A stretch of 64,000 bases of DNA from Candidatus Poribacteria bacterium (lineage in GTDB: Bacteria; Poribacteria; WGA-4E; WGA-3G), in contig PYJD01000031.1 of the NCBI GenBank assembly GCA_003635315.1, positions 157,958 to 221,957 of the forward strand, given 5' to 3'. A program made the translations under genes and the position numbers. The notes below the pieces were generated by a model. That model made no database searches. It was not told the DNA's origin and saw only the letters and a list, made by a program, of their open reading frames with translations. Numbering within the stretch: the first letter of the stretch is position 1; each line of letters starts with the position of its first letter. Below, piece by piece: positions 18,106 through 60,538 of this stretch.

Positions 18106-18187
18106 AAAAACACCAGATTTCCAATGGTGAGATGTTTTTCAATCACGACGAATCCGTCCCAATCCCTCTTCTCCGCGGAATCCGCGT

Positions 18188-18291: not shown

Positions 18292-18549
18292 AAATAGGTA
18301 TTCCTAATACCATTTCTACATGAATATGTCACTTCTTGTAGCATAAACTACCAGACCAAATGCTGATTACATATTTTTTTAATAAAATTGAAAATTAAAT
18401 GAAGAAAATAACTATATCTAACAACTAACATTACCAAAAGCTACTTTTTTAGCATAAACTTCGAGAAGGTAGGGAAGGAACGAACCCACCATCCACAGTT
18501 CCACCTTTCCAATCTTCCAATTCCGTACTTTTATGGGAAGTATATAATT

Positions 18550-18968: not shown

Positions 18969-19015
18969 TGTCTCTCTTTGTAGCATAAACTGATAGTTTG
19001 TGCCACATTACGCTT
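18935..19015 (+). mobile_element. MITE-A variant copy (core CATAAACT-gat-AGTTTGTG)
   Basis: Same architecture as other MITE-A copies, with compensatory substitutions in the stem. Confidence 0.5.
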
Positions 19016-19252
19016 CAGTTCTACTGTAACTATTGTAAAAATTAAGGCAGGATATCTAAAACTGAATAGTCCTGCAAATATATTAAAAGTACTTGTCAAA
19101 ATAGAGGAATTATACAATACTATATTGTAGAATCTTTAAGAATCTCAAATGAATAATTTAAAATACAAAAATAATACATACAAAAGAACATCACATTACT
19201 TACCGAAATCGTTTAGAAAAAATATCAATCAAGCTAAACGAAGGAGAATAAA

Positions 19253-22210
19253 TTGAAAGTCTTAAAACTTATTCTATTTTTCTCATTTATCTTTTCTGTT
19301 CCAGTTTCAATAGCCTATGAATACCAGTGGATAAATAATGAAGAAATCGAAGGGGCAGACAGCGTTACAGAGGTTAAGCCTCTCCAAGTCATTTTTCTTG
19401 ATGAACCCATTGAGGTGGTAACACACAGTGCCTCTTTGCGTTTGATGCAAAAGTATTCTGTATACCTTGGCACAGAATGGAGTCCGGGGAACGCATATCG
19501 ACTGCTTAAAACTTTCGAATCCATACCCCAACTGACAAACAATCCTTATCATGTTGAACCCACAGTACCTTATTCCTTATGGAAACTGACCCGAAAACAC
19601 ATTCAGGGTGACATCGAAATAGATGTTAGAAATAGACAGACTATTGTTACTGTTTCAGAGGGTGCGTTTACCTATACTGAACCGAGATTGGCAGAGATTG
19701 AAGGTGTGGAAGGACGCTACTTTTCGAAACGACTACATCACGCAGTTGTTCGGTTCGTAACAGATGACGGTAGAGACAGACAAGCAATTGAGTACATATT
19801 GAACAAACGTTATGGGATCAGTTTAAATGTACCCGACTACACAGAATTGACGCGACACACAACAGGTGAGCACGCTGCGCGTTTCACAACCTTTAAAGAC
19901 GAAGAGGTGTTGGATCTCGTCAATATGATTGAGGAATTCCCAACTGGCATGCATAAAATTACGGGACTGAATTACATCATTCGACGTTTAGATGGAACAC
20001 CCCACCCACTTTATCCCACTGCTCCCGCAGTCGCATGGACACAGAGCGGTTACATTGAGTTCATGGAATCCGCATTTCTGGAACAAGGAGCAGACTATAT
20101 CCACCGTTTAATCCTTCATGAAAAGGCACACTTTTTGTGGGAATACCTATTTGATGATCAACTCAAACAGGATTGGATTGAGCTTGGAGGTTGGTATGAA
20201 AATCCAGACGATGTGGATGGGTGGTCTACGACAAAACAGCTTGAGTTTGTTTCCGCGTATGCACACGGCAAGAATCCTAATGAGGATATGGCAGAGAGTA
20301 TCAGTCATTACATCGTTCGACCTGACATACTCCGGTCACGCGCACCAGACAAATATCAATTCATCCAAGATCGGATTATGCACGGCACACGTTATATATC
20401 ACGCATACGCGAAGATCTAACCTTCCAGGTCTACAACCTTTATCCTGATGTCGTGTATCCAGGACGAATTATACGGGTGAATATAGATGTTAGTGGTGAA
20501 CCGGAAGCAGATAAACGTATAGTGATTGAAATAGAACTACACCAGACAGGAGATTTAGACACAGCACAAGCATCAAGTGTCAGAATATTTAGTGACAAAG
20601 GCACATACTTTGACATCTGGCTGTATCCAATAAAAAACGGTATATATACGGATACAGGACATATTCTGCGAGGTGAGGTAGTTTTATCGCGCTATGCTGC
20701 ACACGGATATTGGGGTCCAGATGCGATTACTCTCAAAGATGCTCAAGGAAATGAACGACACCAATCACAAACCGATTTTGGATGGAAACTCTATATCAAC
20801 AGTCCGTTAGCTGACACGGAGGCACCGATTTATGTAAAAAACTCTATGCGTCTTTCCTTGTCAGATGATATGGAAAATGGAAGGCCACTGCAAATATTGA
20901 CGGCTCAGTGGAAGATCATTGAGCAAAATGATATTGAATCCATTTCAGCACGAGCAAACGACGAAAGTGATGAGACTTATTCACGACATTCGTTTAACTT
21001 TGGAACATACGATAAACAGACCGGTTTAGCGACTGTTAAGCTTATTATCCCTGATTACTTCCAAACCGGGATATATTCACTGAACCATATAAGTATGAAA
21101 GATATCGCATTAAACACACGCGGCGTCTACTTTACTAAACCGCATTCCAGCATAAGGGACGAAGAAGAAATCCTTGATGAGAAACCTGCCACCATCCATA
21201 TTAAAACAACAAACCCTGATAGCAATCCCCCTATTCTTGATTTGAACTGGATTACTGTAACAGCAGAACCGACAAATCCTGATGAACCAAACGGGGAAAC
21301 ACGAGTTGATATTACCTTCAGAATTAAGGATGACATCAGTGGATATAGTAAGACATATATTGATTTACGTGATCCACATGGCGTGGTTCACACCTTTTCA
21401 CATCTTCATAGCGATTATTACAAAACCTATTTCACAGAGGATCCATTTGACTTTAAAATCTACAACAAAACGATTATTCTTCCTGTTGGTAGCGTCCCGG
21501 GTACATGGGGTATTTCTCAGATGACAGTTCAAGATAAGGCACAAAACATCCTACGCGCCGACTTCACAGAAATTGTCCGTTTTGTTGTGAATGATATGTC
21601 TGTCATATCTCAATACGACGTCAATGGTGATGGAAAGATAGACATACTGGATTTAATAATGGTAGCAAATGCATTTGGAACGACTGAGAATGATAGTGCG
21701 GATGTCAACGGTGATGGTGCTGTCAATATACAAGATTTAGTAGGAGTTGCCAGTCATATCGGTGAAGGATCTTTAGAGGCACCGACTACACACAATCTAA
21801 CTGCCAACCAAATACAAAGTTGGATCACACAAGCAACACAAGTCGATGACGGTAGTCCTGCTTTCCAGTCAGGTATTCGTGTGTTACAAGACCTCTTACT
21901 CGAACTGCAACCAGAAAAGACTGAACTGTTGCCAAATTATCCTAACCCGTTTAACCCGGAGACATGGATTCCCTATAAATTGGCAAATCCAAGTGATATA
22001 ATAATAAATATCTATGATTCGAGTGGCAGCCTTGTGCGTCAACTTGACTTGGGTCATCAGTCAACCGGTATATACCAGATTCGTAGTCGTGCTGCATATT
22101 GGGATGGTCGGAATAAGCTTGGGGAACGGGTGGCGAATGGAATCTATTTTTATCAACTGCAGACGGATAGTGTTTCACCACCACTTAGGAAAATGGTTAT
22201 TCTGAAATAA
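19253..22210 (+). CDS. Secreted multidomain zinc metalloprotease (HExxH) with dockerin-type repeats and a T9SS (Por) C-terminal sorting domain
   Basis: Signal peptide; HEKAHFLWEY (HExxH); dockerin repeats DVNGDGKIDILDLIMV and DVNGDGAVNIQDLVGV; C-terminus LLPNYPNPFNPETWIPYKL...NGIYFYQL...KMVILK typical of a T9SS sorting domain. Confidence 0.75.
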   Translation: MKVLKLILFFSFIFSVPVSIAYEYQWINNEEIEGADSVTEVKPLQVIFLDEPIEVVTHSASLRLMQKYSVYLGTEWSPGNAYRLLKTFESIPQLTNNPYHVEPTVPYSLWKLTRKHIQGDIEIDVRNRQTIVTVSEGAFTYTEPRLAEIEGVEGRYFSKRLHHAVVRFVTDDGRDRQAIEYILNKRYGISLNVPDYTELTRHTTGEHAARFTTFKDEEVLDLVNMIEEFPTGMHKITGLNYIIRRLDGTPHPLYPTAPAVAWTQSGYIEFMESAFLEQGADYIHRLILHEKAHFLWEYLFDDQLKQDWIELGGWYENPDDVDGWSTTKQLEFVSAYAHGKNPNEDMAESISHYIVRPDILRSRAPDKYQFIQDRIMHGTRYISRIREDLTFQVYNLYPDVVYPGRIIRVNIDVSGEPEADKRIVIEIELHQTGDLDTAQASSVRIFSDKGTYFDIWLYPIKNGIYTDTGHILRGEVVLSRYAAHGYWGPDAITLKDAQGNERHQSQTDFGWKLYINSPLADTEAPIYVKNSMRLSLSDDMENGRPLQILTAQWKIIEQNDIESISARANDESDETYSRHSFNFGTYDKQTGLATVKLIIPDYFQTGIYSLNHISMKDIALNTRGVYFTKPHSSIRDEEEILDEKPATIHIKTTNPDSNPPILDLNWITVTAEPTNPDEPNGETRVDITFRIKDDISGYSKTYIDLRDPHGVVHTFSHLHSDYYKTYFTEDPFDFKIYNKTIILPVGSVPGTWGISQMTVQDKAQNILRADFTEIVRFVVNDMSVISQYDVNGDGKIDILDLIMVANAFGTTENDSADVNGDGAVNIQDLVGVASHIGEGSLEAPTTHNLTANQIQSWITQATQVDDGSPAFQSGIRVLQDLLLELQPEKTELLPNYPNPFNPETWIPYKLANPSDIIINIYDSSGSLVRQLDLGHQSTGIYQIRSRAAYWDGRNKLGERVANGIYFYQLQTDSVSPPLRKMVILK

Positions 22211-22260
22211 ACTACCCAAGTAATTACACGCTTTACACCTAACCATTCAACCAACCCGGT

Positions 22261-22287
22261 AGGAGCGGTTTGGAACCGCTCCGAATA
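22261..22287 (+). terminator. Hairpin GGAGCGGTTTGGAACCGCTCC downstream of the protease gene (putative terminator; weak U-tract)
   Basis: Perfect 7-bp GC-rich stem 50 bp past the stop. Confidence 0.4.
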
Positions 22288-22331
22288 TAATATAACATGC
22301 GTATTTATGACAACTATTCATTTAGAAATGG

Positions 22332-22772
22332 TTGATATGGAGAAATCTAATGTATAAATTATTTCTACCCATTATGTTGTTGAGTATACTTATCATGGGT
22401 TGTATACCAGATTCACCATTAGATCCTGATGAAACCTCCAATCCGACTTACATTACAACACAATTTATCATGCAAGGTGCTAAAGTAGTTTCAAACGATG
22501 GAACTGACACATTTCTTGGAGAAATCACAGGAAAATATAATAGCAACTCTATATTCAACAATTATGGTATATACGGGAGTAAATATAGTGTAACGTCTAT
22601 TTGGAATCCATATAGCATATATGGAAGTAAATATAGTATATATAGTGCCTTTAATGACTACACAATTACCCCTCCACAGATAATAAAAAACAATACAAGA
22701 ATCGGTTATCTCACAACCAACAAACATTTACATGGAGGAGTAAGCCCCAACCTTCTAAAGTCACTTTTCTAA
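22332..22772 (+). CDS. Small lipoprotein with Y/S-rich repeats (hypothetical)
   Basis: Lipobox LIMGC; repeats YGIYGSKYSVTSIWNPYSIYGSKYSIYS. Confidence 0.45.
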   Translation: MIWRNLMYKLFLPIMLLSILIMGCIPDSPLDPDETSNPTYITTQFIMQGAKVVSNDGTDTFLGEITGKYNSNSIFNNYGIYGSKYSVTSIWNPYSIYGSKYSIYSAFNDYTITPPQIIKNNTRIGYLTTNKHLHGGVSPNLLKSLF

Positions 22773-22841
22773 CCGGGAACATCTATCTTCATAATAAGCA
22801 CACGTAGGGTTCCAACCTATAAGAACCCCAAAATAAAACAA

Positions 22842-22955
22842 TACCATTTCTAATTTATAAACTCTCTTTTTTGTAGCACAAACTTTCAGTTTGTGTCTTC
22901 CTTGTTTCATTTCTAACAGCCAGTAATGAGAGAAATAATAAATTTGAAATGGTAT
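22842..22955 (+). mobile_element. MITE-A copy (reference copy)
   Basis: ATACCATTTCTAATT...CTCTCTTTTTTGTAGCACAAACTTTCAGTTTGTGTCTTCC...AATGAGAG...TTTGAAATGGTAT; a degenerate second copy lies at ~23040..23110 (core CATAATCTG-tca-GATTGTG). Confidence 0.7.
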
Positions 22956-23287
22956 AATCAACCTTTCAACATACCTTACGATCCCTAAAATTCACACATA
23001 AAGTGCAGTTTCCCGATCACACGGATTTTATATATAACCTTAGTTGCCACCTATGTAGCATAATCTGTCAGATTGTGCCTAAGGTAATGTGACAAAATCA
23101 ATAGAAATGGCATCATTATATGAGTACACTAATCCTGTCTAATTAAAATATCGTCACAGATCGTATAAACTGCTAAAATAGTTTATACTATTAGGCTATC
23201 ATCTTGTATAGATAGACATTATTTAAAATGACCTATGGTTTTATTATATATTTTATATGTGGCAACTTATAATAGAAGAGGTGGAGA

Positions 23288-24427
23288 ATGAACAATAAGA
23301 GGATTATCATCATCGGTGGTGGTGTGATTGGACTTGGCATAGGGTGGCAGTTAGCAAAAGCAGGTGCAGCTGTCACCATACATGAACGAGGACAAGCCGG
23401 ACGCGGGGCATCATGGGCAGCCGGTGGGATGCTCGGTCCTATCGCTGAGGCACACATTGACGAACTTGATCTGCTGAAACTCAGTAATCAAAGTTTAGAA
23501 CGCTATCCAGAATGGGTTGATGAGTTAGAATCTGAAACAGAAATGACTATCGGTTACAGAGCAGAAGGTACGCTCATAATTGGAATTAACCCTGATGATT
23601 CATATCAACTCAAACACGCATATAACTTATATAAAGATTTAGGATTAAATGTTGAGTGGTTGAGTGGACAAGAAGCACGAAAAATTGAAGGTGCACTCTC
23701 ACCATACGTAACGGCAGCGATTCGTTGTGAAACTGACCATCAAGTCGATAACCGTCTGATGGTCCAAGCACTGGAACATGCATATCTGGGGCGAGGTGGT
23801 GTGCTCCAGCAAAACAGCAATGTGGAGAAAATTGTCATTGAAAACGGTAACGTAACTGGTATTCAAACACAAGATGGTTTTCAAGATGCGGATGTATGTA
23901 TTCTCGCTGCTGGATGCTGGTCGGGACAGATCAACGGGTTACCGGATTCTATGATTCCTCCCGTGCGTCCCGTAAAAGGGCAGATGTTAGCATTACAAAT
24001 GCGTGAAGATAATATGATTAGTAATGTCGTTCGTACCGTCAAGGCAAGGTATCCGATGCCTGTATATTTAGTACCGAGAAAAGACGGAAGACTTGTCATC
24101 GGAGCAACAACCGAGGAGTTAGGGTTTGACACAGATCTGATCGTCGGTGGTATATATGAACTCCTTCACGGTGCGTTTGAAGCTGTACCGAGCTTTTACG
24201 ATCTACCGCTAATAGAGACCTGGACAGGTTTACGTCCCGGTAGCAGTGACAATGCACCCATCCTTGGCAAAACACCGGTTGGAAATTTAATCTATGCAAC
24301 AGGTCACTATCGAAACGGCATCTTACTCACCCCCATCACAGCATACGAAATATCTAAACTGATCCTGACGGGAGAGACACCAGAAACAATAGCACCCTTC
24401 CATCTGGATCGGTTTTCAGACGAGTAG
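23288..24427 (+). CDS. thiO: FAD-dependent glycine oxidase / D-amino-acid oxidase family (ThiO-like)
   Basis: N-terminal dinucleotide-binding fold IIIIGGGVIGLGIGWQLAKAG; C-terminal GHYRNGILLTP motif; 379 aa. Confidence 0.6.
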   Translation: MNNKRIIIIGGGVIGLGIGWQLAKAGAAVTIHERGQAGRGASWAAGGMLGPIAEAHIDELDLLKLSNQSLERYPEWVDELESETEMTIGYRAEGTLIIGINPDDSYQLKHAYNLYKDLGLNVEWLSGQEARKIEGALSPYVTAAIRCETDHQVDNRLMVQALEHAYLGRGGVLQQNSNVEKIVIENGNVTGIQTQDGFQDADVCILAAGCWSGQINGLPDSMIPPVRPVKGQMLALQMREDNMISNVVRTVKARYPMPVYLVPRKDGRLVIGATTEELGFDTDLIVGGIYELLHGAFEAVPSFYDLPLIETWTGLRPGSSDNAPILGKTPVGNLIYATGHYRNGILLTPITAYEISKLILTGETPETIAPFHLDRFSDE

Positions 24428-24629
24428 CATCTTTAGAATCTACATGTTTATCCTACCGTGTACCACATTTTCACTTGAATTATCAGACCAATATGGACAA
24501 TGGTAGAACATAATGATAATTTTACCATACCGATATCAATTATACCATAGGGTTATTTAGTTTTCTAAATTTCCACTACTTTTTATTTATTCCGTAATTG
24601 TATATATTGTTATCTTATATAGGTCTTTA

Positions 24630-24980
24630 GTCCCATCGGGACGGAATGTTTATAGCAAAAGTGTATACACCATAGGGAGTTCCATCAGGACGGAATGTTT
24701 ATAGAAAAAATGCGAACCCCTATCTTGAGTTCCGACATATGCTATATGCTTATTTGACGTTGATTAGGTAGGGACGGAATGTCTATAGAAGAACGTATTC
24801 ACACAGTCTTGAGTCCCATCGGGACGGAATGTTTATAGAAAAATGCGAACCCCTATCTTGAGTTCCGTAGGAACGGAATGTTTATAAAAGAACGTATTCA
24901 CACAGTCTTGAGTCCCATCGGGACGGAATGTCTATAGAAAAATGCGAACCCTATCTTGAGTTCTGTATGAACAGCATAAT
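24630..24980 (+). repeat. Family-B tandem array. It carries about 7 units of a ~26-bp hairpin repeat (GTCCCATCGGGACGGAATGTTTATAG) separated by ~23-bp segments that themselves recur in alternation. CRISPR-like but not CRISPR.
   Basis: Stem variants GTCCC/GGGAC and GTTCC/GGAAC (compensatory). 'Spacers' AAAAATGCGAACCCCTATCTTGA and AAGAACGTATTCACACAGTCTTGA each occur 3 times. Confidence 0.7.
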
Positions 24981-25529
24981 CAAAAAACATATCGTCACGG
25001 GTGGGTATAAACTTTGAGTAAATAACAATAACGGAAGCCCCTTAAAAATATGACATTTTCATCAACTATTCATGAAATCCTACAAATCGTTGTAGGTTCT
25101 TCCTATTGAGGATCTAACAAATCATCATATAAGTCAATAAAGTATCGTAAAATATTGTTCTTGACAAATACAACCAAATATGTTTTAATTTTGATTGATG
25201 AGTTACGATGTGCCACAGTTTAGAGGGTTTTTGCATCATTATTACGTTAATTCCCTCCTAATGCTTAACAAAATTTACCACTTTTCTAAGGAAAAATAAA
25301 AACGGGGAGATTTCATAAATAGATATAGGAACGAGTGGATCACATGGCGTAGAAATAACAATTATGATTGTAATGAGGTTGCCATGGGAGCACATGTTGA
25401 CGATGTTTTGAGATCGTTAGTTAGTTCAAACAAACTTAAAAGATTAGGTAATGGATGGGATAGAGTTGTTAGTACTGAAGCAATAAACATAGAAGTACCA
25501 TCGATATTTTAGAACATGATTTCGTAAAG

Positions 25530-25651
25530 TTAAGACAAGTATTCTTTCTCAAATTCAATTGGTGTTAAATAGCCTAATGCTGAGTGAGATCGTTTATGGT
25601 TATACACTTTTTCACTAAACTGTCCAATGCGTATATGGTATCGTGATATCA
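25530..25651 (-). pseudogene. C-terminal fragment of an IS3-family transposase (integrase-core end)
   Basis: Minus-strand translation MTMMISRYHIRIGQFSEKVYNHKRSHSALGYLTPIEFEKEYLS* matches the conserved rve-domain C-terminus (YNxxRxHSALGYxTPxEF). An in-frame stop lies immediately upstream, so only a ~43-aa remnant remains. Confidence 0.6.
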
Positions 25652-25689
25652 TCATAGTCATTCAGATGGATTTCACCCCTCCTTGACAG

Positions 25690-26334
25690 AAGGTTGAAAA
25701 TGCAGAGATAACTGAAGCACCCCAACTCAAAGGTGATGTAAACGGCGATGGTATCGTCAACATACAAGATTTGGTGTTAGTCACTTCTAATCTTGGGAAA
25801 TAGGGACAAATGCTGCGGATGTGAACGGTGATGGCATCGTTAATATTCAGGATCTCGTCCTTGTTGCTGGTGCATTAGGTACAAGTGCAGCCTCACCATC
25901 TATACTTTCCCAATCATTAGAGACACTACAACTGCAGATGTCAAATTGTGGTTATCTCAAGCACAACAACTAAATCTCACGGATACTACCTCCCAGCGCA
26001 GTAGCCTGTTCTTAGAACAACTCCCTGAGACGTTAACACCGAAAGAGACAGCACTGCTACCAAACTATCCAAATCCGTTCAACCCAGAGACGTGGATACC
26101 GTATCAGTTAGCGAAGGATGCGAATGTTGCACTGCATATCTATGCTGTAAACGGCACATTGGTGAGAACATTAGCACTCGGATATCAGGCTGCGGTCGGT
26201 ATCAGAACCGTAGTCGTGCCGCGTATTGGGATGGTAAGAATGAATTCGGTGAACGCGTGGCGAGTGCAGTGTATTTCTATACACATACAGCAGGTAATTT
26301 CACTGCTACGCGTAAGATGTTGATACGGAAGTAA
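25690..26334 (+). pseudogene. Frameshifted remnant of a dockerin + T9SS C-terminal domain, copied from the 3' end of the 19253..22210 gene
   Basis: Frames contain GDVNGDGIVNIQDLVLV, ADVNGDGIVNIQDLVLVAG, then LLPNYPNPFNPETWIPYQL...HIYAVNGTLVRTLALGYQ, and in another frame RSRAAYWDGKNEFGERVASAVYFY...RKMLIRK. Confidence 0.7.
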
Positions 26335-26443
26335 ACCTTATCAACGAAACACGGAAGAGTGTAAGCTAACACCCTTCTATTAACAACCTGACTGCACAAC
26401 TACACATTGCATTCATAAATCAATAAAGGAGTTTATGTTGAAA

Positions 26444-27076
26444 ACTTTAGTTGTAAATGTAAATAATTTTGTATCAAGACCACTAATTTTGAGTTTTATT
26501 ATAGTCGTTTTAGTTATGTTCTCTAAAGCTTCTGTTTCGGTAGCTGAATTTGAGGTAGGAACACAATTCGGATTTACCCGACTTGTTCCCACAGATGAAA
26601 CTTAATCTTCAGTATCGGTTCTACAGGTACCCTCAGGAGAAATATCTGGTGTTGGTGCCTCGCCTTACCTAACTTTCTTTCCTCATAAGCAGCTTGCTGT
26701 TAGTCCTGCATTCGATTTTACACGGCTAACGACAACAACGTCTTTTACACTTTGGGGAGAAAGTGAAAAAGTAACCGTGAGTGCAAGCCAACTCTACTTA
26801 GGAAGTAAATTTCATTATTTTTTTATCGGTCATCAAGTGTCTAATCCTTATTTATTTGGAAAAGTGTCCATAACCGCTCCATTTAGTGAAAACAGTGACA
26901 GTGAAGTATTATTTCATACTGGGATTGGTCTTGGTTACCAATTGCCCATTGTCCCTGCTTATTTTCTTCGGTTGGAAGGACAGTACAACCGTTTGATAAA
27001 TGAAGACGAAAACGCTAACGGTTTTTCAGTAATGATGGGTATTGGTGTGCGGTTTGGAAACAACGAAGAAAGATAG
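26444..27076 (+). pseudogene. Probable disrupted outer-membrane beta-barrel gene (signal peptide in one frame, rest of protein in another)
   Basis: MLKTLVVNV...VLVMFSKASVSVAEFEVGTQFGFTRLVPTDET* stops at 26604. Beta-barrel-like sequence continues in a different frame to 27076 (…GIGLGYQLPIVPAYFLRLEGQYNR…GIGVRFGNNEER). Confidence 0.4.
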
Positions 27077-27344
27077 CACACTGAGAGAACACGTGGTAAC
27101 GATTTTACCACTACAGCAAAATGTTGATATAATGTAGTAGGTTGGGTCGGTTCTCCTTAACGCTCAATCCAACCTACGAAATCCACTATACCTCACCTAC
27201 AACGGAAATACGCAAAATGAATCAATACGCAAAATCTAATATAATAGCGTTATTTACAATACCTTTGTAAAATTAGGTAGCAACATAGGTTAGTATAAAT
27301 CAATATAAGGCACTATATCGGTAAGGTTCTATAATCTGTAAACC

Positions 27345-27385
27345 CAAAAACAGGTAGGTAATATATCAATTACCTACCTGTTTTT
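27345..27385. terminator. Bidirectional rho-independent terminator
   Basis: AAAAACAGGTAGGTAAT-atatca-ATTACCTACCTGTTTTT (perfect 15-bp stem flanked by A/T runs). Confidence 0.8.
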
Positions 27386-27639
27386 ATATAAAAGTTATTC
27401 AAACACATTAACAAGCCGTGTCCGGACAATCAAGTTTTCATATTTTTGCCAATATTGATAACACCAATCCGTCCATCTTAAGGTAATCCTTACAGAGAAA
27501 CATAAACATACACCCAGATAGCCAGAAACGATCTTATACATTTTTTTATCATTGTTATGTCATTGAAGATTAACTATTGGTTGGGTATAGTATGTATTTT
27601 GATTTACGCATCAATTAATACCATTACAGATATAAAATA

Positions 27640-27720
27640 TCTCTCCCTTGTAACCTAAACTGCCAGTTTGTGGCACAATCCGCTTTCTCTCTAACAACAG
27701 GTAATCGAAAAAATATAATA
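27640..27720 (+). mobile_element. MITE-A variant copy (core CCTAAACT-gcc-AGTTTGTG)
   Basis: Same spacing and flanks as other copies, with stem covariation. Confidence 0.5.
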
Positions 27721-27766
27721 AAAATTGAAGAAATATTAAAGAACAAACATCACATTTATAAATTAG

Positions 27767-27797
27767 TTGACAGAATAGTAAACATACGTTACAATAC
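27767..27797 (+). promoter_or_regulatory. Sigma-70-like promoter (TTGACA-17-TACAAT)
   Basis: TTGACAgaatagtaaacatacgtTACAAT; the nearest downstream ORF is 27910..28200. Confidence 0.45.
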
Positions 27798-27909
27798 CAG
27801 ATAGTGAATTATTTTAATACTCAAACTAATGCCAAACCAGTATGAATTAAGTATACATATACACTGTTTTACAAATATGACTTCTATCACACAAATTAAT
27901 GGACATTAA

Positions 27910-28200
27910 ATGTTAAAGAATCCATCAAGAACACTTTTTTATTTTTTTACACAAATTCGTAAATTGGCTATAAACATAGGTGGCTACTTACCTAACAGCG
28001 AATATACAAAAATTGAGGTGACAGAAAAAAGTTACGATTTCGTAACTTTTTCAAACAATAGTAATAAAGAAATTACAAACTTTCCGAAGCGGTCAAAATC
28101 ATCTAAAAATAAGAACAGCAAAACTGGTAAAAGTGTATATTGGATCTTCATCGGAAATGTAAGGAAGATACAAAATCCCACAATTTCCGAATTATTATAA
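27910..28200 (+). CDS. Hypothetical small basic protein (96 aa)
   Basis: ORF downstream of a consensus promoter; no recognisable domain and no ribosome-binding site. Confidence 0.25.
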   Translation: MLKNPSRTLFYFFTQIRKLAINIGGYLPNSEYTKIEVTEKSYDFVTFSNNSNKEITNFPKRSKSSKNKNSKTGKSVYWIFIGNVRKIQNPTISELL

Positions 28201-28477
28201 TTCTAATAAAAACACCGATGAACACAGACTGTGACAGGGCGGACAGCGGTTTTTATAATGACACACAATGTGTCAAAAAGTGTAACATTTTAAACATACT
28301 AATATATAATATATTACTATTGTTAATTAGAAAAATGGTGTAAATTACGGAGAATTACTTGGTTAAATATATAGGTATAGTGAAAAATAAAGATACCTTA
28401 AAAATAAGATTTAGGTGATATATTCCAAACTGATAATATAGGTTTTTGAGATATGTGATAGATAACAAATTACATCT

Positions 28478-28587
28478 AATACCATTTCTAATTGATGAAC
28501 TCTATTTTTTGTAGCACAAACTTTTAGTTTGTGTCTTCCCAGTTTCATTCCTAACTGCCGGTAATGGGACAATAATAAATAGAAATG
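28478..28587 (+). mobile_element. MITE-A copy
   Basis: ATACCATTTCTAATT...TGTAGCACAAACTTTTAGTTTGTGTC...AAATAGAAATGGTAT; track ORF 28411..28617 is spurious. Confidence 0.7.
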
Positions 28588-28876
28588 GTATAACAACAGA
28601 CAATAACTATAATCCAATAATATACTATTAGATAAACCAGAATCCTACTATTTTCACGCTTTCTAAACTTGCAATTATGGATAAAATAAGGTATAATAAT
28701 ACTGAAATTGTACAATAAATTAATAATATTCGAAGATATTTTTGGTTAAAATTCTACTGCTTACTCCTTACCTCAAGAGCAACTACTTCTCAACTTATAC
28801 TTATAGGATTTTAGCTTACTTGAATGATAGAAAGATATTATTAAACGCTCTCTCAGGTAAATGTATTGAGGAATAA

Positions 28877-29890
<1,014 letters not shown>

Positions 29891-29895
29891 TAGGT

Positions 29896-30657
29896 ATGAA
29901 TATGCGAACCCCAATCATAGCAGGTAATTGGAAACTTAATAAGACCGTTTCAGAGGCTGTTTCACTTACAATCGATTTAATTAAATTAGTTGATAAGATT
30001 TCAGATGTTGAAATAGTAATCGCACCCGTTTTTACGGCTTTATCCGATGTACATGATGCAATTAATGGCAGTAACATTCAATTGGCTGCACAAGATGTCT
30101 ACTGGGAGGACAGCGGGGCTTTTACAGGAGAAGTTTCTGCACCGATGCTAAAGGATGTCGGTTGTGATTACGTTATAATAGGACATTCTGAAAGACGCCA
30201 ATACTTTGCTGAAACAAATGAGTCTGTGAATCAGAAAGTTAAAGCTGCATTATCTCATGATTTAAAGCCTATTATCTGTGTCGGTGAACTTCTTGAAGAA
30301 CGAGAAGCAGGAAAAACAGAATCTGTAATAGAAGATCATGTTAAAGGAGCAATTGTTGATCTAAGTGTTTCTGAAATGGAATCTTGTGTCATTGCTTATG
30401 AACCTGTCTGGGCAATTGGGACAGGTAAAACTGCCACTCCTGATCAAGCACAAGAAGTTCACAATTTTATCAGAAATATCCTGGAAGATTGCTATTCTGA
30501 TAAACTCGCATCACAAATCAGGATTCAGTATGGCGGAAGTGTAAAACCTGAAAATGCAGAAGAACTAATGTCTCAACCAGATGTAGACGGGGCACTTGTA
30601 GGGGGTGCAAGTCTTGACGCTGAATCTTTTGCCGAAATTGTCAAACAATCAAGATAG
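29896..30657 (+). CDS. tpiA: Triosephosphate isomerase
   Basis: IAGNWKLN, GHSERR, AYEPVWAIGTGKTAT motifs. Start placed at ATG 29896 (MNMRTPIIAGNWK) rather than the overlapping 29842. Confidence 0.9.
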   Translation: MNMRTPIIAGNWKLNKTVSEAVSLTIDLIKLVDKISDVEIVIAPVFTALSDVHDAINGSNIQLAAQDVYWEDSGAFTGEVSAPMLKDVGCDYVIIGHSERRQYFAETNESVNQKVKAALSHDLKPIICVGELLEEREAGKTESVIEDHVKGAIVDLSVSEMESCVIAYEPVWAIGTGKTATPDQAQEVHNFIRNILEDCYSDKLASQIRIQYGGSVKPENAEELMSQPDVDGALVGGASLDAESFAEIVKQSR

Positions 30658-30814
30658 TTTATATAAAATATATGAAAATAATGTGAGTTCTAACTAAGTG
30701 TCATAAAATACTAATGACTTGAATACTGTTTTACATCCAGGGTATATGTGTTTCTAACTGTCCTGATGCAAAATAGTGGTAATACCGAACTCATAAAGAA
30801 TTAAAGAGGGAAAA

Positions 30815-31255
30815 ATGGGAGCAATAGTAACATTAGTCATAATCGTTTTTGTACCTGTATGTGTTGTCCTAACACTTATTATACTTTTACAAGACAGTAA
30901 GGGTGAGGGACTCTCTTCAAGTGCATTCGGCGGATCAGGAATGGAATCCGTTTTAGGTGGTCATGGTGCAGCTTCTTTTTTAAGTAAACTGACAACTTGG
31001 GTTGCAATAGGTTTCATGGTTATTTCACTGTTTCTAATGCGGTTTTATGGTGAATCAGTTGATGGAACACTGACTCCTTACGAAGAGGAAAATACTGAAC
31101 AGACCCAACAAGCAACAGTTGAAGATCAGGAAAATGCAGAAGATTCTAAGGGCGCAATAACAGACATTTCTGAAGAATCAACCGATGATGGTACAACTAC
31201 AGAAGAAACAACTGATACAACCGATGAAGATACTAAAGGTACCATCTCTCCATAG
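30815..31255 (+). CDS. secG: Preprotein translocase subunit SecG with a ~70-aa acidic C-terminal extension
   Basis: Two TM helices with LLQDSKGEGL...FGGSG SecG motif. Conserved gap-tpiA-secG synteny. D/E/T-rich tail. Confidence 0.75.
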   Translation: MGAIVTLVIIVFVPVCVVLTLIILLQDSKGEGLSSSAFGGSGMESVLGGHGAASFLSKLTTWVAIGFMVISLFLMRFYGESVDGTLTPYEEENTEQTQQATVEDQENAEDSKGAITDISEESTDDGTTTEETTDTTDEDTKGTISP

Positions 31256-31273
31256 GAAGTTACTGAATATTAC

Positions 31274-31768
31274 GTGTCTGAAAAACAACAGAACAAAGTT
31301 AGTCAAGATTCATCTGATACAATTGGGAATCAACAATCAACTCCTGAACTCTCTTGGAGAGTCCACCCCATTGTAGAAAATAGGATAAAAACAGTTCTGT
31401 TACTGTTGTTTCTATCCACTATACTTAGTATCATCTACTTCAGTTTTCAATCCGTTGTCGTCCTATTTCTATCTGCGTGTCTACTCATTGGACCACTGTA
31501 CAAGTATTTCCTTCCATACAACTACCATTGTAGGATAGACACGCTTACTGTCTCAACTTGTTGCTCCAACACAGATCGTATGTGGGATTCTTTTAGAAGT
31601 TCCTACGTCGACAAAAATGGTATTCTGCTCAGTCCATTTGCTAAACCTACACGTCTCGAAAACTTCCGTGGCATCTATGTCCGTTTCGGAAAACACCCTC
31701 CAGAAGAAATCGTTAATTATATCCAAACCAAAATTAGTACGGAGTTAAAAGATGACTCTCCAAAATAA
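31274..31768 (+). CDS. Hypothetical membrane protein
   Basis: Two predicted TM helices; no recognisable motif. Confidence 0.35.
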   Translation: MSEKQQNKVSQDSSDTIGNQQSTPELSWRVHPIVENRIKTVLLLLFLSTILSIIYFSFQSVVVLFLSACLLIGPLYKYFLPYNYHCRIDTLTVSTCCSNTDRMWDSFRSSYVDKNGILLSPFAKPTRLENFRGIYVRFGKHPPEEIVNYIQTKISTELKDDSPK

Positions 31769-33032
31769 CAATTCAGATGGAATAATCAGATCTGATGAAA
31801 AGTTAAAGATTGCTATTGAGAATATCGTAGAAAATCAAGAAATCATTGACATACATACACACCTTTTCAGTCCCCCTTTTGGGGATCTCTTGTTATGGGG
31901 TATTGACGAACTTCTCACTTACCATTACCTAATAGCAGAAGTATTTCGTAAATCAGATGTTACCTACGATGAATTTTGGGCAATGGATAAGACACAACAA
32001 GCAGATCTGATATGGCAGAAACTTTTTATTGAGAATTCACCAATTAGTGAAGCCTGTCGTGGGGTTGTTACCACATTAGATAAATTAGGATTGGATGTTA
32101 GTTCAAGGAATCTTCAAGACTACCGCGATTATTTCAGTAGTACATCGGTTGAAGCATTTATTGATACAGTTTTTAAACAGTCGAATGTCAATAAAGTTGT
32201 CATGACAAACGATCCCTTTGATCCTGAAGAAGGACCTGTATGGGAAACAGGAGATACCGGTGATACACGTTTTGAAGCAGCACTTCGTATGGATGTTCTA
32301 ATTAATAACTATGAAGAAACGGCGTATGAACACTTACGCGGTCTCGGGTATGATGTTGACCCGACCCTTTCAACCGAAAAAGGATATAAAGAGGTGAGAC
32401 GTTTTTTAGAATCCTGGATCCAACGTATGAATCCAAGATATATGGCAGTTTCACTCCCACCTGATTTCCAATATCCTGATGATGGCGTACTTGGAAGGTT
32501 GTTCGACAACTGTATATTGCCGATTTCACGGGAGTACAATGTACCATTTGCACTTATGATAGGCGTTAAACGTGCAGTAAATCCCAATCTTAGAATGGCT
32601 GGGGATGGAACAGGTAAAGCTGATTTAGATAGTCTTGAAACGCTACTCCGTGAGAATCAAGACAACAAGTTTCTCGTCACACTCCTATCTCGTGAAAACC
32701 AGCATGAACTCTGTGTTATTGGTAGAAAATTCAAGAATCTAATGATATTTGGATGTTGGTGGTTTATGAACAATCCCAGTGTAATTGAGGAAATCACACG
32801 TGAAAGGATGGAGCTGCTCGGATTAAGCATTATCCCCCAACATTCGGATGCAAGAATCTTAGATCAACTCATTTATAAATGGAGTCATTCACGGCAAATC
32901 ATTTCTGATGTGCTTTACGAGAAATACAAGACACTTCTAAATGTAGGTTGGTCACTAACCCCCTCAGAAATCGAACGAGATGTTAACAACTTATTTGGTG
33001 GTAACTTTGAACATTTCCTGAGTAAAAATTAG
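31752..33032 (+). CDS. Glucuronate isomerase (UxaC)-like TIM-barrel amidohydrolase-superfamily protein
   Basis: IIDIHTHLFSP resembles UxaC IFDYHCHLPP; FGCWWFMNN resembles UxaC GSGWWFND; 426 aa. Confidence 0.45.
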   Translation: MTLQNNNSDGIIRSDEKLKIAIENIVENQEIIDIHTHLFSPPFGDLLLWGIDELLTYHYLIAEVFRKSDVTYDEFWAMDKTQQADLIWQKLFIENSPISEACRGVVTTLDKLGLDVSSRNLQDYRDYFSSTSVEAFIDTVFKQSNVNKVVMTNDPFDPEEGPVWETGDTGDTRFEAALRMDVLINNYEETAYEHLRGLGYDVDPTLSTEKGYKEVRRFLESWIQRMNPRYMAVSLPPDFQYPDDGVLGRLFDNCILPISREYNVPFALMIGVKRAVNPNLRMAGDGTGKADLDSLETLLRENQDNKFLVTLLSRENQHELCVIGRKFKNLMIFGCWWFMNNPSVIEEITRERMELLGLSIIPQHSDARILDQLIYKWSHSRQIISDVLYEKYKTLLNVGWSLTPSEIERDVNNLFGGNFEHFLSKN

Positions 33033-33039
33033 TTATTTC

Positions 33040-33076
33040 TAATTTGAGTTAATTCATGAAAATGTCTATATTTATG
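33040..33076. terminator. Hairpin between convergent genes (GTTAATTCAT-16 nt-ATGAATTAAC)
   Basis: Perfect 10-bp stem. Confidence 0.5.
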
Positions 33077-33078
33077 AA

Positions 33079-33390
33079 TTAACAACCACACGGAGTTGAG
33101 CTGCATTTAGGACATCCATCCGTATAAATCTCTGCTGCATCTTCAAGAGAAATCCCCAGCAAACTCGCTAAAGTAGATAACCACGCAAATACATCTGCCA
33201 ATTCTTCACGCAATCGTTCCAAATCCCGCGGACACTTTCGTATCTCTTTAGCTAATTCTCCTACTTCCTCAACAAACCAAGTAAAAGTAAGAGGTACACC
33301 GCGTTCTGCATCCCGTTCATAATAGATAGCTTCTATCTGTTCTTGAAATTTTTGAATTGTCATACTACTCCTTTGTTTGTATAATAGCAT
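33079..33390 (-). CDS. MazG-like nucleotide pyrophosphohydrolase (short form) with Cys-rich C-terminus
   Basis: EEVGELAKEI...ELADVFAWL MazG EExxE/ELxD motifs; C-terminal CPKCSSTPCGC. Confidence 0.65.
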   Translation of the reverse strand: MLLYKQRSSMTIQKFQEQIEAIYYERDAERGVPLTFTWFVEEVGELAKEIRKCPRDLERLREELADVFAWLSTLASLLGISLEDAAEIYTDGCPKCSSTPCGC

Positions 33391-33514
33391 AGGTTTTTAG
33401 AGGTATCAAATCTAAAATCTTGCCGATTCAAACCTAAAATCCAACTAACCATATAATCTCATACATGTTATAAAAACACAGTAATCTGTATGTCTATACT
33501 TCAAGGAATAATCA

Positions 33515-34585
33515 ATGCAGACACACCTATATCTATCAATAGCCGGTGAAAATCGAATAGCTATATATACATTTGACATTAGTAATGGAAAGATTGAGTT
33601 TCAAGAAAATGTAGAGGTTACCGGTTCTCCCGGTCCATTAACATTATCACCATGCGGTAATTATCTATATGCAGGACTCCGATCAAGTAAAGAAATTGCA
33701 TCCTTCAAAATTGATGAAAAAACAAAGAAACTCACATTATTACAAACAACTGAACTTGATGCAGACACATGCTATATAGCCACCGATAACACGGGTAAAT
33801 TCTTATTATCGGCATATTACGGGGCAGGTAAGGTTACAATTCATAAAATAGGGGATGATAAGACAGTACAAAGTGATACACTTCAAACCATCGAAACCGC
33901 ACCACACGCTCATTACATTGAAACTGATGCGTCCAACCGTTATGTTTTTGTCCCACACACTGTACCTGAAAATGCTATCTACCAGTTCCTCTTTGATCAG
34001 GATACGGGGATGTTGACTGAAAACCCTTTTGGGCATTATCATCCTGATGAACCACTTGGTCCTCGACATTATAGCGAAAGTCCGAATAAACCAATAATCT
34101 ATTCATCTAATGAACAAGGATCAAGTGTTTCTGCTTACAGATATAAGACAGCAGAAGACAATTCAAAATCAGATGGGGGGAAGACACCAGATAAACCGAA
34201 CTACACTGCACATGATGCACCTGGACTTTTATGGGAATTTCAAACAATTTCAAACCTACCAGACGATTTTGATGGAGATAATAGCTGTGCACAAATCCAT
34301 ATTGATCCTCACGGTAAGTTTCTCTATGCTACAAACCGTGGACATAATAGTGTTGCTATGTATTCAATTGATGAAAACACTGGGGAATTAACTGCTTTAG
34401 GACATCAACCCACAGAACCAGTTCCTCGGGTTTTTAATATAGATGAAACAGGGAACTTTCTTTTTGTCGGTGGTCGTGACTCTGGTAAACTGGCAACCTA
34501 CAAGATCAACCGTCAGAATGGGATATTATCTGAATTAGAGGTTTATGAAGTTGGAGAGACACCCATGTGGGTATTATTTCTATAG
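33515..34585 (+). CDS. 6-phosphogluconolactonase-type lactonase (7-bladed beta-propeller, YbhE/Pgl family)
   Basis: N-terminus LYLSIAGENRIAIYTFD...GSPGPLTLSPCGNYLYAG and repeated propeller blades, characteristic of Lactonase/3-carboxymuconate cyclase-like proteins. Confidence 0.6.
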   Translation: MQTHLYLSIAGENRIAIYTFDISNGKIEFQENVEVTGSPGPLTLSPCGNYLYAGLRSSKEIASFKIDEKTKKLTLLQTTELDADTCYIATDNTGKFLLSAYYGAGKVTIHKIGDDKTVQSDTLQTIETAPHAHYIETDASNRYVFVPHTVPENAIYQFLFDQDTGMLTENPFGHYHPDEPLGPRHYSESPNKPIIYSSNEQGSSVSAYRYKTAEDNSKSDGGKTPDKPNYTAHDAPGLLWEFQTISNLPDDFDGDNSCAQIHIDPHGKFLYATNRGHNSVAMYSIDENTGELTALGHQPTEPVPRVFNIDETGNFLFVGGRDSGKLATYKINRQNGILSELEVYEVGETPMWVLFL

Positions 34586-34678
34586 TTGCGTAGGAATTTT
34601 CAGATAGGAAGTATTCTTTGATTACCTATCGTATAGGTGTTTAACAAAAGTTTCAAATTCTTTGTATTCATATAAAAA

Positions 34679-34709
34679 ATGGGTATGGTAAAAAACCATA
34701 CCCATGAAT
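34679..34709 (-). terminator. Rho-independent terminator for the selenoprotein gene (ATGGGTATGGT-loop-ACCATACCCAT, then UUUUUUAU on the minus strand)
   Basis: Perfect 11-bp stem 11 bp past the stop codon of 34720..34950. Confidence 0.75.
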
Positions 34710-34719
34710 ACATTAATTA

Positions 34720-34950
34720 CTATAGCTTATCAATTGAGGTTGTAATCTGTTCATCTGATGGGAATTTCCCAGTCTCTAACTTGGAATAGAGCAAGTCATC
34801 ATTCACAAATACCTCAAATGCCCCACCACTACTGGGAATTAAGTTAACTTTTTTTACTTGTCCACCATACTTTGATTCTAAGGCTTCTGCCAAACTGGCT
34901 GCCTTCGGTTTATAGTTTCAAGAAGTGCAATACTCAATTCTAATATCCAT
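34720..34950 (-). CDS. selW: SelW/Rdx-family selenoprotein (76 aa) with in-frame UGA = Sec at codon 11 (CxxU motif). Not in the ORF track.
   Basis: Minus-strand translation MDIRIEYCTS-U(TGA at 34918..34920)-NYKPKAASLAEALESKYGGQVKKVNLIPSSGGAFEVFVNDDLLYSKLETGKFPSDEQITTSIDKL*. Strong match to SelW (vYCGAUGYKPKY...GfFEVtVaGkLVhSK). AGGAGG ribosome-binding site 10 nt upstream; TTGCAC-17-TAAAAT promoter; hairpin starting 11 nt after the UGA. Confidence 0.8.
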
Positions 34951-34987
34951 TTTATATAATCCTCCTAACTGAATGTCAGATTAATTA

Positions 34988-35016
34988 ATTTTACCAAATA
35001 ACCCCAAGAAGTGCAA
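34988..35016 (-). promoter_or_regulatory. Sigma-70-like promoter for the selenoprotein gene (TTGCAC-17-TAAAAT on the minus strand)
   Basis: The -10 element ends ~38 nt upstream of the ATG. Confidence 0.5.
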
Positions 35017-35089
35017 GTTTTTCTACCGTCTTGCTCTTGACACACCTAACATTCAACAGGTATAATATTCTAAGAAATTAAGGTAAAAA

Positions 35090-37132
35090 ATGAAAGATTT
35101 AATGACAAATAATAACACTACTTATACTTCCATCCGACATATATCTATTATCGTATTCCTATCCGCATTCCTGATATTAAAAAATACTTATGCCATAGAT
35201 TATATCAAATATGAACGAGAATTCTCTGGTAAAGGATCTACACAAGGTTCATTTGGGAAGGATATCCATCTTACATTCAATAACGGCATTTACGTCTCTG
35301 ATACAGAAAACAGATTAATCCAGAAACTATCACCAACCGGTGAATTCCTATTCCAAATACCCGCCAATCCTGAATCAAACGAGAATTTGTTAGAAAAACC
35401 AGGACATCTGGTTGTTGATAGCTCTGGGAACATATATGTCACAGATATTACTGCTCATCATATTGCAGAAACTGCAGAACCCAAAATCTATATTTTCACA
35501 CCATGTGTATTTAAGTTCAATTCCTCAGGTGAACTATTACATACATACTTTGTTGATCCTGTAGACGAACAACCAGGTGTTGTTCTACCTGCGAAATTAA
35601 TTATTGATGAAAATGGCAAAACAGCATTTGGTATACAACCCACTGGTCATGACAGATCATTACGTGTTGCAATTAACCCACAAAACCATCTGTTTGTATT
35701 GGATGCTAAACGCGGACGAATACATAAATTTGATGTTGATGGAACTAAGTTGAAAACCTTTGGTAGATATGGGGCAGGGGAAGGGGAATTCGATAAGGAT
35801 TCTGCTGATATTGCAATTGATCTCAGAGGAAATGTCTTTGTAGCTGATACCGGTAATAACCGTATTGTGAAATTTGATTCCAATGGGAATTTTGTGCGTG
35901 CATTTGGTACAAAAGGTAGAGATAACAGTGAATTTATTAGACCTAATAGTCTGATTGCATTACCAACTGGTGAGATTTTAGTAAAGGATTCCAGTAAATT
36001 CCGTAGAAAAGTTGGGGGCTTACCAGAAGTTATCGCACTATCTCCCACCTTAACCCAGCTTGGGGATAGTACACCCAGACAAATAGAACTGGCTAATACC
36101 ATCTCAAATGCAACCCGTCCACAATATGGTCCATTTGCACATAATGACCTTACTCTCGGTGATACAGCAACAATGAACCGTCGGCTAAGATTACTTGAAG
36201 AGGCTGAGTATCGACGATATTATGAAGATTATGAAACAGATGACGAAAATGATGAAGAATTTGCCGATGAATTAAAACGGGTTGACATCCGTTTAACAAT
36301 GTTACATAATGTCGTCTCACGAATCCAGAAATTCGATAACAATGGGAATTACATAGATCGAATTATATATGAAATTGACCAGTTGAGTGAAGAAAAACAT
36401 GATCTGACTTTCCTCGATATTGATCCATCTGGGTTTTTGTATTTACGGGATACCAGCGACTTTACAATTACGCAATATTCTGTTACAGGTTTCACTGTGA
36501 AACCTTCCCATATGAATGGGTTTTATAGCACACGTGCTATCAATTTCAACAATAACTATCTTGAAGATTATGAGGATATAGACTTCTCTATAGATGTAGA
36601 TGATAAATTAAATCAGTTAGAACTTAAGAACTTATTTGGATGGACATATAGTCTTTCTGAAAAATGGTATCTAACCTTACTTGATGAGTTTACCTATGGA
36701 GAACAGGATGAACGTTATGTAACACCACCGAAGATAGAAGATAGTTTTGATTTTGAGACACAAGCTTTGGAGAATGCCTTTGCTGCAAATCTGAAATACA
36801 TTACAAATCCCAATCCTTATAGATATAAGGAATTTAACCTATCTGTGGGTAGAATCAATGGAACTTCAGACTTAACACAGGATGCTCTGTTCCCAGAAGT
36901 AAATAGACAACATAGGATTGATAGTGGAGATGCAAATTCTACTGTTCTTGAGGTGAATTGGGATGTTTGGTCACGAACGAATATATGGTTTAGATATGCG
37001 GATCTAAATCCTGCTGAGACAAGTAGGAATTTTATACGACGATTCTACGATGTGTCTGGGGATCTATATGAAGTATTTGGTAGTCGTAATGAAGCCAGAC
37101 AGTTCCTTGGTGAATTTACTATAAAGTTCTAA
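35090..37132 (+). CDS. Secreted NHL-repeat protein with an additional C-terminal domain ending in a beta-barrel-like ...TIKF
   Basis: Signal peptide; NHL repeats (RLIQKLSPTGEFLF, GHLVVDSSGNIYVTDI, GNNRIVKFDSNGNFV); acidic linker; C-terminal aromatic residue. Confidence 0.6.
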   Translation: MKDLMTNNNTTYTSIRHISIIVFLSAFLILKNTYAIDYIKYEREFSGKGSTQGSFGKDIHLTFNNGIYVSDTENRLIQKLSPTGEFLFQIPANPESNENLLEKPGHLVVDSSGNIYVTDITAHHIAETAEPKIYIFTPCVFKFNSSGELLHTYFVDPVDEQPGVVLPAKLIIDENGKTAFGIQPTGHDRSLRVAINPQNHLFVLDAKRGRIHKFDVDGTKLKTFGRYGAGEGEFDKDSADIAIDLRGNVFVADTGNNRIVKFDSNGNFVRAFGTKGRDNSEFIRPNSLIALPTGEILVKDSSKFRRKVGGLPEVIALSPTLTQLGDSTPRQIELANTISNATRPQYGPFAHNDLTLGDTATMNRRLRLLEEAEYRRYYEDYETDDENDEEFADELKRVDIRLTMLHNVVSRIQKFDNNGNYIDRIIYEIDQLSEEKHDLTFLDIDPSGFLYLRDTSDFTITQYSVTGFTVKPSHMNGFYSTRAINFNNNYLEDYEDIDFSIDVDDKLNQLELKNLFGWTYSLSEKWYLTLLDEFTYGEQDERYVTPPKIEDSFDFETQALENAFAANLKYITNPNPYRYKEFNLSVGRINGTSDLTQDALFPEVNRQHRIDSGDANSTVLEVNWDVWSRTNIWFRYADLNPAETSRNFIRRFYDVSGDLYEVFGSRNEARQFLGEFTIKF

Positions 37133-60470: not shown

Positions 60471-60538
60471 ACAGTATGAATGCCATTTAGACATTCCCTG
60501 CTTTAACGTAAACACCTGTAGTTTCAACCGAAAATAAC

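Follow-up and report, generated by a model that had tools for sequence, protein, structure and literature searches.

Bacterial SelW-like selenoproteins with a CxxU motif, in which U is selenocysteine (Sec), were described in 2005. Among prokaryotic selenoprotein families they are the most abundant one in marine metagenomes, with 48 Sargasso Sea genes and 427 Sec versus 56 Cys forms in the Global Ocean Sampling (GOS) data (PMC1088965, PMC2398784). Few or no Cys forms are known from Sec-using organisms (PMC1794560), and genes of this kind are known to be missed by annotation (PMC4607533). Members of the family (PF10262, formerly PF05169; TIGR02174; NF041051) comprise one full-length domain of approximately 76 amino acids (aa) with an N-terminal CxxU, and in their genes a small hairpin whose loop contains a G comes after the in-frame UGA. 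The same organization was found for a gene on the minus strand of a 64,000-nt stretch of a Candidatus Poribacteria bacterium (GenBank assembly GCA_003635315.1, contig PYJD01000031.1, positions 157,958 to 221,957), here called the window, and nothing essential was different. The locus is very probably a real, monocistronic gene for a SelW-like selenoprotein, the UGA of which is read as Sec with a SECIS-like hairpin (SECIS, selenocysteine insertion sequence). It is a sound annotation correction and represents a new ortholog group of a known family, with no new kind of biology; no description of the Poribacterial ortholog group was found in the searchable literature.

The coding sequence (CDS; 34720..34950, minus strand, 76 residues, stop codon included in the coordinates) was delimited by translation, profile matches, a set of 82 Poribacterial sequences and a structure model of an ortholog (P0001). 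From the ATG at 34950 the frame reads ATG GAT ATT AGA ATT GAG TAT TGC ACT TCT TGA, and it is closed by a TAG at 34720-34722. The in-frame TGA at codon 11 (34918..34920, minus) is the Sec codon of the motif C8-T-S-U11. After read-through, the product is MDIRIEYCTS-U-NYKPKAASLAEALESKYGGQVKKVNLIPSSGGAFEVFVNDDLLYSKLETGKFPSDEQITTSIDKL, with the segments NYKPKAASLAEAL and then GGAFEVFVNDDLLYSK following the U. A preliminary description of the window, made from the sequence alone, had proposed exactly this minus-strand frame with TGA as codon 11, and the sequence reads as described there. For profile searches of the read-through product, Cys was put in place of the TGA. Pfam Rdx (PF10262) matched with 89.3 bits (cut-off 22.6, E = 1.8e-25) over profile positions 2-73 of 74, starting from residue 3. 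TIGR02174 (CXXU_selWTH) scored 87.1 bits against a cut-off of 34.2, and the equivalog NF041051 scored 89.8 bits against a cut-off of 88. The earlier assignment of the product as a clear SelW/Rdx protein was thereby confirmed over the full length, and the single Pfam match spanning the TGA bears out the accompanying claim that the downstream core lies in the same frame and requires read-through.

Gene finders shorten the gene because codon 11 is UGA. According to the preliminary description it was invisible to ORF (open reading frame) calling; the full gene is missed indeed, but plain ORF calling lists a 57-aa ORF with a TTG start (34720..34893, minus), and P0014-P0019 were deposited likewise. 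The functional product might thus be a 57-residue protein translated from an internal TTG or ATG, with the upstream 10 codons acting as a leader or mini-ORF. The ORF exists, scores 55.6 bits against TIGR02174 on its own, and several databases annotate orthologs in this way. However, such a protein would be devoid of strand 1 and of the CxxU centre, whereas the full form matches the Rdx profile almost from its first residues (residue 3 onwards). The first 10 codons change synonymously while the encoded residues are conserved, a conserved AGGAGG is located before the ATG at 34950 and none before the TTG, and the internal start is absent or different (Leu/Met) in many orthologs. A 57-residue functional product was therefore considered extremely improbable.

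A structure model was made for P0001, which is 96% identical to the window protein. The model had a mean pLDDT (predicted local distance difference test) of 87.9 and the element order beta-alpha-beta-beta-beta-alpha-alpha, and the SelW-like product is accordingly predicted to have a thioredoxin-like fold, as expected for the profile assignment. Strand 1 comprised residues 2-8 and helix 1 residues 14-28, with the CxxU at their junction; sequence and model together place C8-T-S-U11 where strand 1 ends, ahead of helix 1. Crystal structures of five bacterial SelW-related proteins (Atu0228, 2fa8; BpR68, 2ojl; 2obk; SAV_2001, 3dex; VcR75, 2p0g) matched the model with template modelling (TM) scores of 0.89-0.92 and root-mean-square deviations (rmsd) of 1.1-1.3 Å, the redox motif being at the same place; for 2fa8 the values were 0.91 and 1.1 Å. 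TM scores were 0.73 against mouse SelW and approximately 0.6 against thioredoxins. By sequence, 2fa8, 2ojl, 2obk, 3dex, 2p0g and 2oka were found with E-values of 1e-10 to 2e-6, 2fa8 being closest (E = 1.4e-10). The solved bacterial Rdx proteins share 27-32% identity with the window protein and are 20-30 residues longer. In 2fa8 a CTQC (CxxC) stands where the window protein has CTSU. Mammalian selenoprotein W (2npb) was recovered with E = 4e-4; it belongs to the same family and likewise has a CxxU and a thioredoxin-like fold.

Relatives of the gene were collected by a one-genome-per-species pattern scan. The pattern (GGAFEV...) is remote from the TGA and hence unbiased about it. The scan found 175 relatives, the best 80 of which (62-93% protein identity) were Candidatus Poribacteria metagenome-assembled genomes (MAGs) or unnamed MAGs. 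These 80, a 6.4-Mb relative (L001) and the window formed the Poribacterial set (n = 82). A distant set (n = 83; roughly 40-60% identity, varied environments) was compiled from a metagenome scan seeded by the most distant homologs and from the loci of P0013, P0020 and P0021. Codon 11 was TGA in 82/82 sequences of the Poribacterial set, and C-x-x-TGA was present in 83/83 distant homologs; Cys was found in none of either set. In the 82 sequences, the residues I, E, Y, T and S/A of codons 5, 6, 7, 9 and 10 were kept with varied codons (ATT/ATA/ATC, GAA/GAG, TAC/TAT and four Thr codons before the TGA), and codons 24-72 also varied synonymously with fixed amino acids. Because synonymous variation occurs on either side of the TGA, both sides are taken to be translated in one frame.

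These alignments bear directly on the possibility that the locus is a pseudogene, i.e. a dead fragment of a CxxC Rdx protein in which the Cys codon (TGT/TGC) was mutated to TGA. A change from TGC to TGA affects a single base, and in the more distant solved Rdx protein 2fa8 the second Cys of CTQC is the residue aligned with Sec at codon 11. The preliminary description had itself named a family normally carrying Cys, with this copy nonsense-mutated, as the finding that would speak against a selenoprotein. When this was looked at, TGA was present in all 165 homologs down to approximately 40% identity and Cys in none, which agrees with the published scarcity of Cys forms among SelW-like proteins of Sec users (PMC1794560). 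Moreover, both flanks of the TGA are under purifying selection with synonymous change, and the promoter, ribosome-binding site and terminator are retained. The pseudogene explanation has practically no chance of being correct.

Fifteen database orthologs (P0001-P0013, P0020, P0021) carry W at the Sec position, as would be expected if TGA encoded Trp (code 4); in the related case of code 25 it would encode Gly. However, the W arose artificially when gene callers adopted code 4 for short contigs: the DNA has TGA at this codon, and under table 11 translation of the W-bearing loci does not yield the query. In the window, 37 non-overlapping long ORFs, which make up most of the 64 kb, are without in-frame TGA, and 4/37 end in TGA. 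Codes 4 and 25 were judged impossible because TGA ends long ORFs and never occurs inside them; in addition, Trp or Gly as second redox residue would disable CxxC/U. Virtually no weight was therefore given to an alternative code, and Sec was retained as the reading of codon 11.

The SECIS-like hairpin was located at 34880..34905 (minus; family core 34887-34901, apical loop 34893-34895) by folding, synonymous entropy and covariation. With the T of the TGA numbered as position 1, the window sequence folds with -9.4 kcal/mol into a lower stem 16-20/37-41 (AAGGC/GCCUU), an internal loop A/AGAA and an upper stem 22-25/29-32 (GCCA/UGGC) with loop 26-28 (GUU). The G-first triloop lies 22 nt after the UGA, the first paired base 12 nt and the family-conserved core from 16 nt after it. 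In the preliminary description a stem-loop had been placed exactly 11 nt 3' of the UGA; the hairpin is present, but its spacing is 12 nt instead. The consensus of bacterial SECIS elements is a 5-6 bp hairpin few nt past the UGA with an invariant loop G (PMC4607533; PMC13582414; PMC1088965), and the hairpin agrees with the published criteria (5-6 bp hairpin soon after the UGA; G at loop position 1 or 2).

Within the Poribacterial set, synonymous entropy was near zero in codons 16-23 (CGG 77/77, GCA 77/82, GCC 82/82, AGT 82/82, TTG 80/81, GAT 45/45, GCC 80/80), compared with 1-2 bits at fourfold-degenerate sites elsewhere in the gene. Constraint at the RNA level thus sits exactly on the hairpin. 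Across phyla, the core was tallied over 105 unique sequences and reads GC[N] GC[C/G] AGU [U/C]U[G/C] GC[N] G, positions 20-25 pairing with 29-34. Pair 22:32 was G-C in 105/105 sequences. Pair 24:30 was C-G in 83 and G-C in 22 and hence unbroken in 105/105; in the switch, Ala GCC becomes GCG, and at the same time either Leu UUG becomes CUC or Leu is replaced by Phe (UUC). Pair 23:31 was C-G, U-G or U-A across phyla. Pair 21:33, formed by the third positions of two Ala codons, was C-G, U-A or A-U outside Poribacteria and A-A inside. The loop was GUN, with G as first base in 105/105. The SECIS core fixes the peptide motif AAS(L/F)A, a stretch that is not kept in 2fa8.

In a 61-sequence alignment, 90.7% of the core cells were paired, as opposed to 16-43% when the 3' partner was slid by 1-3 columns, and in 3/6 core pairs both partners had changed in a compensatory manner (28 cells). 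Covariation scored 0.222 versus 0.079 for shuffles, 0/500 of which reached the observed value; RNAalifold independently predicted a 4-bp core. The SECIS-like character claimed in the preliminary description is thus supported by frozen synonymous sites in codons 16-23, by covariation across phyla and by the invariant loop G.

Compared with other SelW-like hairpins, the Poribacterial one has the A-A mismatch at 21:33 plus an extra lower stem (GGC/GCC). In mammalian SelW the SECIS is a kink-turn element of the 3' untranslated region (UTR) used by SBP2 and eEFSec, whereas the window element lies in the CDS just past the UGA, as bacterial elements do (PMC1088965). The SECIS of E. coli fdhF, the textbook bacterial element, to which SelB binds, is likewise a stem-loop that lies in the CDS immediately 3' of the UGA; its upper stem is short, a G-U opens the apical loop, and the loop lies approximately 20 nt from the UGA. 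There is no sequence similarity between the two, the upper stem of the window hairpin is without the bulged U, and its loop of 3 nt would widen to 5 nt on opening of the closing A-U pair. Liu et al. reportedly placed the minimal E. coli SECIS element 11 nt after the UGA in 1998; the stem in the window starts 12 nt (lower stem) or 16 nt (conserved core) after it. Neither the 11-nt placement nor the bulged U of the fdhF type was thus found in the window hairpin, which would work like the fdhF SECIS without being the same element.

Several observations weigh against Sec decoding by this hairpin. Lone folding of the window hairpin was not significant when compared with shuffles (z-scores of -1.46 over a 45-nt stretch and +0.27 over 66 nt), and the hairpin is short (4+5 bp in the window). 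The core is invariant within Poribacteria, so that the covariation comes only from other phyla. Rfam gave no match at gathering score in the whole window and only noise (E of at least 0.12) in 34650-35050. No selA, selB, selD or tRNA-Sec was detected in the window or within 10 kb of the gene in 81 Poribacterial loci by tblastn with E. coli SelA, SelB and SelD and by ARAGORN for the tRNA. Likewise, a second selenoprotein gene was detected neither in the window, which was screened for TGA read-through ORFs and CxxU-type motifs, nor in 1.6 Mb of Poribacterial flanks, which were screened by clustering for conserved in-frame TGAs. A lone match to the GTPase domain of SelB in the window and Poribacterial loci was rejected as IF-2, and the remaining clusters were rejected because they consisted of ordinary TGA stops or of TGAs lying ahead of the true start codon.

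Absence of the Sec machinery from the window and the Poribacterial flanks would also fit recoding of the UGA to a residue other than Sec, either to Cys via a tRNA(ReC)-type tRNA or by near-cognate read-through, with selA or selD lost. SECIS-dependent decoding of UGA by tRNA(ReC)-like tRNAs has been described (PMC13582414). However, TGA and SECIS are strictly kept across approximately 80 Poribacterial species, which argues for a canonical, selected system. SelA, SelB and SelD COGs were reported for a Poribacteria genome (Ca. Poribacteria WGA3G: COG1921 SelA = 2, COG3276 SelB = 1, COG0709 SelD = 1; Slaby et al. 2017, Table S4), and homologs in other phyla are located within selC-selD-selA-selB clusters. 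Recoding to a residue other than Sec was thus regarded as highly unlikely. In most sponge-symbiont bins SelA and SelB co-occur, and they are absent from most close reference genomes (PMC5649159). Sec-type group 4 [NiFeSe] hydrogenases were reported for Poribacteria in a 2026 paper.

In other lineages, the SelW-like gene directly adjoins selD, selA, selB or tRNA-Sec in 42/83 loci; in this respect the Poribacterial gene, which is not beside sel genes, differs. Two layouts were observed. In the first, the SelW-like gene stands back to back with a divergent selD, and selA follows downstream; in the other, the SelW-like gene, tRNA-Sec, selD, selA and selB all point in one direction. Examples among L087-L111 and L126-L161 are L141 (3028-6210), L088 and L100. 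The sel-adjoining homologs carry the same core hairpin, which is therefore used in organisms that certainly decode Sec. Together with the literature on Poribacteria, sel adjacency elsewhere suggests that selABCD would be encoded in the genome from which the window derives. At locus L086, a SelD homolog beside the SelW-like gene (602-1696, minus) has an in-frame TGA at its active site (...STKAG-U-GCKIGP...). This SelD is Sec-containing, and the gene caller had read through the codon with code 4.

The sel adjacency in 42/83 loci, the two sel layouts, the Sec-only family and the conservation of the SECIS core at the nucleotide level raise the tentative, rather doubtful idea that the SelW-like subfamily is functionally tied to selenium utilisation itself. 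If so, the protein might serve SelD by handling selenide or redox chemistry. Alternatively, it could be an 'anchor' selenoprotein, one that maintains selection for the Sec trait and moves with it in horizontal transfer. A comparable case has been published, in which fdhA or selD moves together with selABC (PMC1794560); no published statement on linkage between SelW-like and sel genes was found in a literature search. Under such a tie to selenium utilisation, the Poribacterial gene might have lost its link to the sel genes and come under a strong promoter of its own, a suggestion that is again possible rather than probable.

Upstream of the CDS, a -35 hexamer TTGCAC (35011..35016, minus; TTGCAA in most orthologs, with an A-rich stretch before it) is followed after a 17-nt spacer by an extended -10 element, TGgTAAAAT (34988..34996, minus; TAAAAT at 34988-34993, TG at 34995-34996). 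The block AAAAACTTGCAa-17-TGGTAaAAT is kept upstream in nearly all 81 Poribacterial orthologs, in which the -10 is TAAAAT, TAGAAT or TACAAT with a TG before it and the distance to the ATG varies from approximately 38 to 65 nt. The promoter TTGCAC-17-TAAAAT had been proposed in the preliminary description; it is present and conserved, but its -35 matches the consensus TTGACA at only 3/6 positions. For this reason it is missing from the list of a consensus promoter scan, and its credibility derives from conservation in orthologs. The ribosome-binding site AGGAGG (34961..34966, minus), also described before, lies 10 nt before the ATG, with no counterpart before the internal TTG; (A/G)GGAGG was found 7-11 nt before the ATG in nearly all Poribacterial orthologs.

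Downstream, scanning and folding identified the intrinsic terminator (34673..34705, minus) that the preliminary description had attributed to the gene. It consists of a hairpin (34679-34705) with an 11-bp stem, ATGGGTATGGT/ACCATACCCAT, and a subsequent T-run. The folding energy was -18.3 kcal/mol (z = -4.5), and 0/200 shuffles folded equally well. At least 54/82 orthologs have a hairpin and T-run after the stop codon, and their stem sequences differ. Since promoter, AGGAGG and terminator are conserved among orthologs, the gene was considered a monocistronic unit. It stands alone, as its neighbours are a convergent lactonase-family gene (33515-34585) and a divergent NHL-repeat gene (35090-37132), the latter with its own promoter.

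In the proposed mechanism, transcription would start at the conserved sigma-70-type promoter with extended -10 and end at the intrinsic terminator approximately 15 nt past the stop codon, and translation would start at the ATG at 34950 behind the AGGAGG. The UGA at codon 11 would be decoded as selenocysteine. The hairpin in the CDS, whose apical GUU loop is reached 22 nt past the UGA, would act as a bacterial SECIS; it would be bound by SelB and should bring SelB-GTP-Sec-tRNA(Sec) to the ribosome, so that selenium would be inserted at the UGA. Cys8-x-x-Sec11 would form a redox centre between strand 1 and helix 1, and the product is most likely a thiol/selenol oxidoreductase with a corresponding redox role.

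A perfect promoter (TTGACA-18-TATAAT, 12/12; 35037-35066, plus) is located 24 nt before the start of the NHL-repeat gene, and the promoters of the NHL-repeat and SelW-like genes are back to back in a 140-bp intergenic region. When window positions 28886-34950 were compared with 10001-18933 of L001, the SelW-like, lactonase-family and MazG-like genes were common to both, in the arrangement SelW-like, lactonase and, further on, MazG. GAPDH and TIM are found a few kb away in both. A 426-aa ORF (31752-33032, plus) gave no Pfam match at E of 0.001 or below. Between GAPDH and a 379-aa gene, the N-terminus of which resembles a dinucleotide-binding oxidoreductase by reading only, 4.4 kb (24427-28886) are without an ORF of at least 150 aa. 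This stretch contains a fragment frameshifted over two frames (25946-26334) that includes PNYPNPFNPETWIPYQL and presumably resembles a C-terminal secretion-sorting domain of the type IX secretion system (T9SS) type. The stretch may represent gene decay or a non-coding region. Other gaps in the long-ORF map are 58257-61230, 18105-19445 and 22210-23288.

Orthologs of the gene are mis-annotated in the databases in two ways. One class comprises 76-residue entries with 'W' at position 11, as in the fifteen W-bearing orthologs listed above, and the other comprises 57-58-residue entries starting after the TGA (P0014-P0019). In P0020, later TGA codons were read through as well, giving a spurious protein of 123 residues. 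The correct annotation of the gene is a 76-residue selenoprotein with a transl_except for Sec at codon 11, and the same correction applies to approximately 80 Poribacterial species with orthologs cut to 57 residues or given a spurious Trp. It is plausible that other UGA-containing selenoprotein genes are mis-annotated across these genomes. The finding leaves the knowledge of selenoproteins unchanged and is no surprise to the specialist; it provides a clean example of a bacterial SECIS that freezes synonymous sites and dictates a peptide motif. As an invariant Sec-only gene, it marks these sponge symbionts as selenium users, in agreement with the reports of SelA and SelB in sponge-symbiont bins (PMC5649159).

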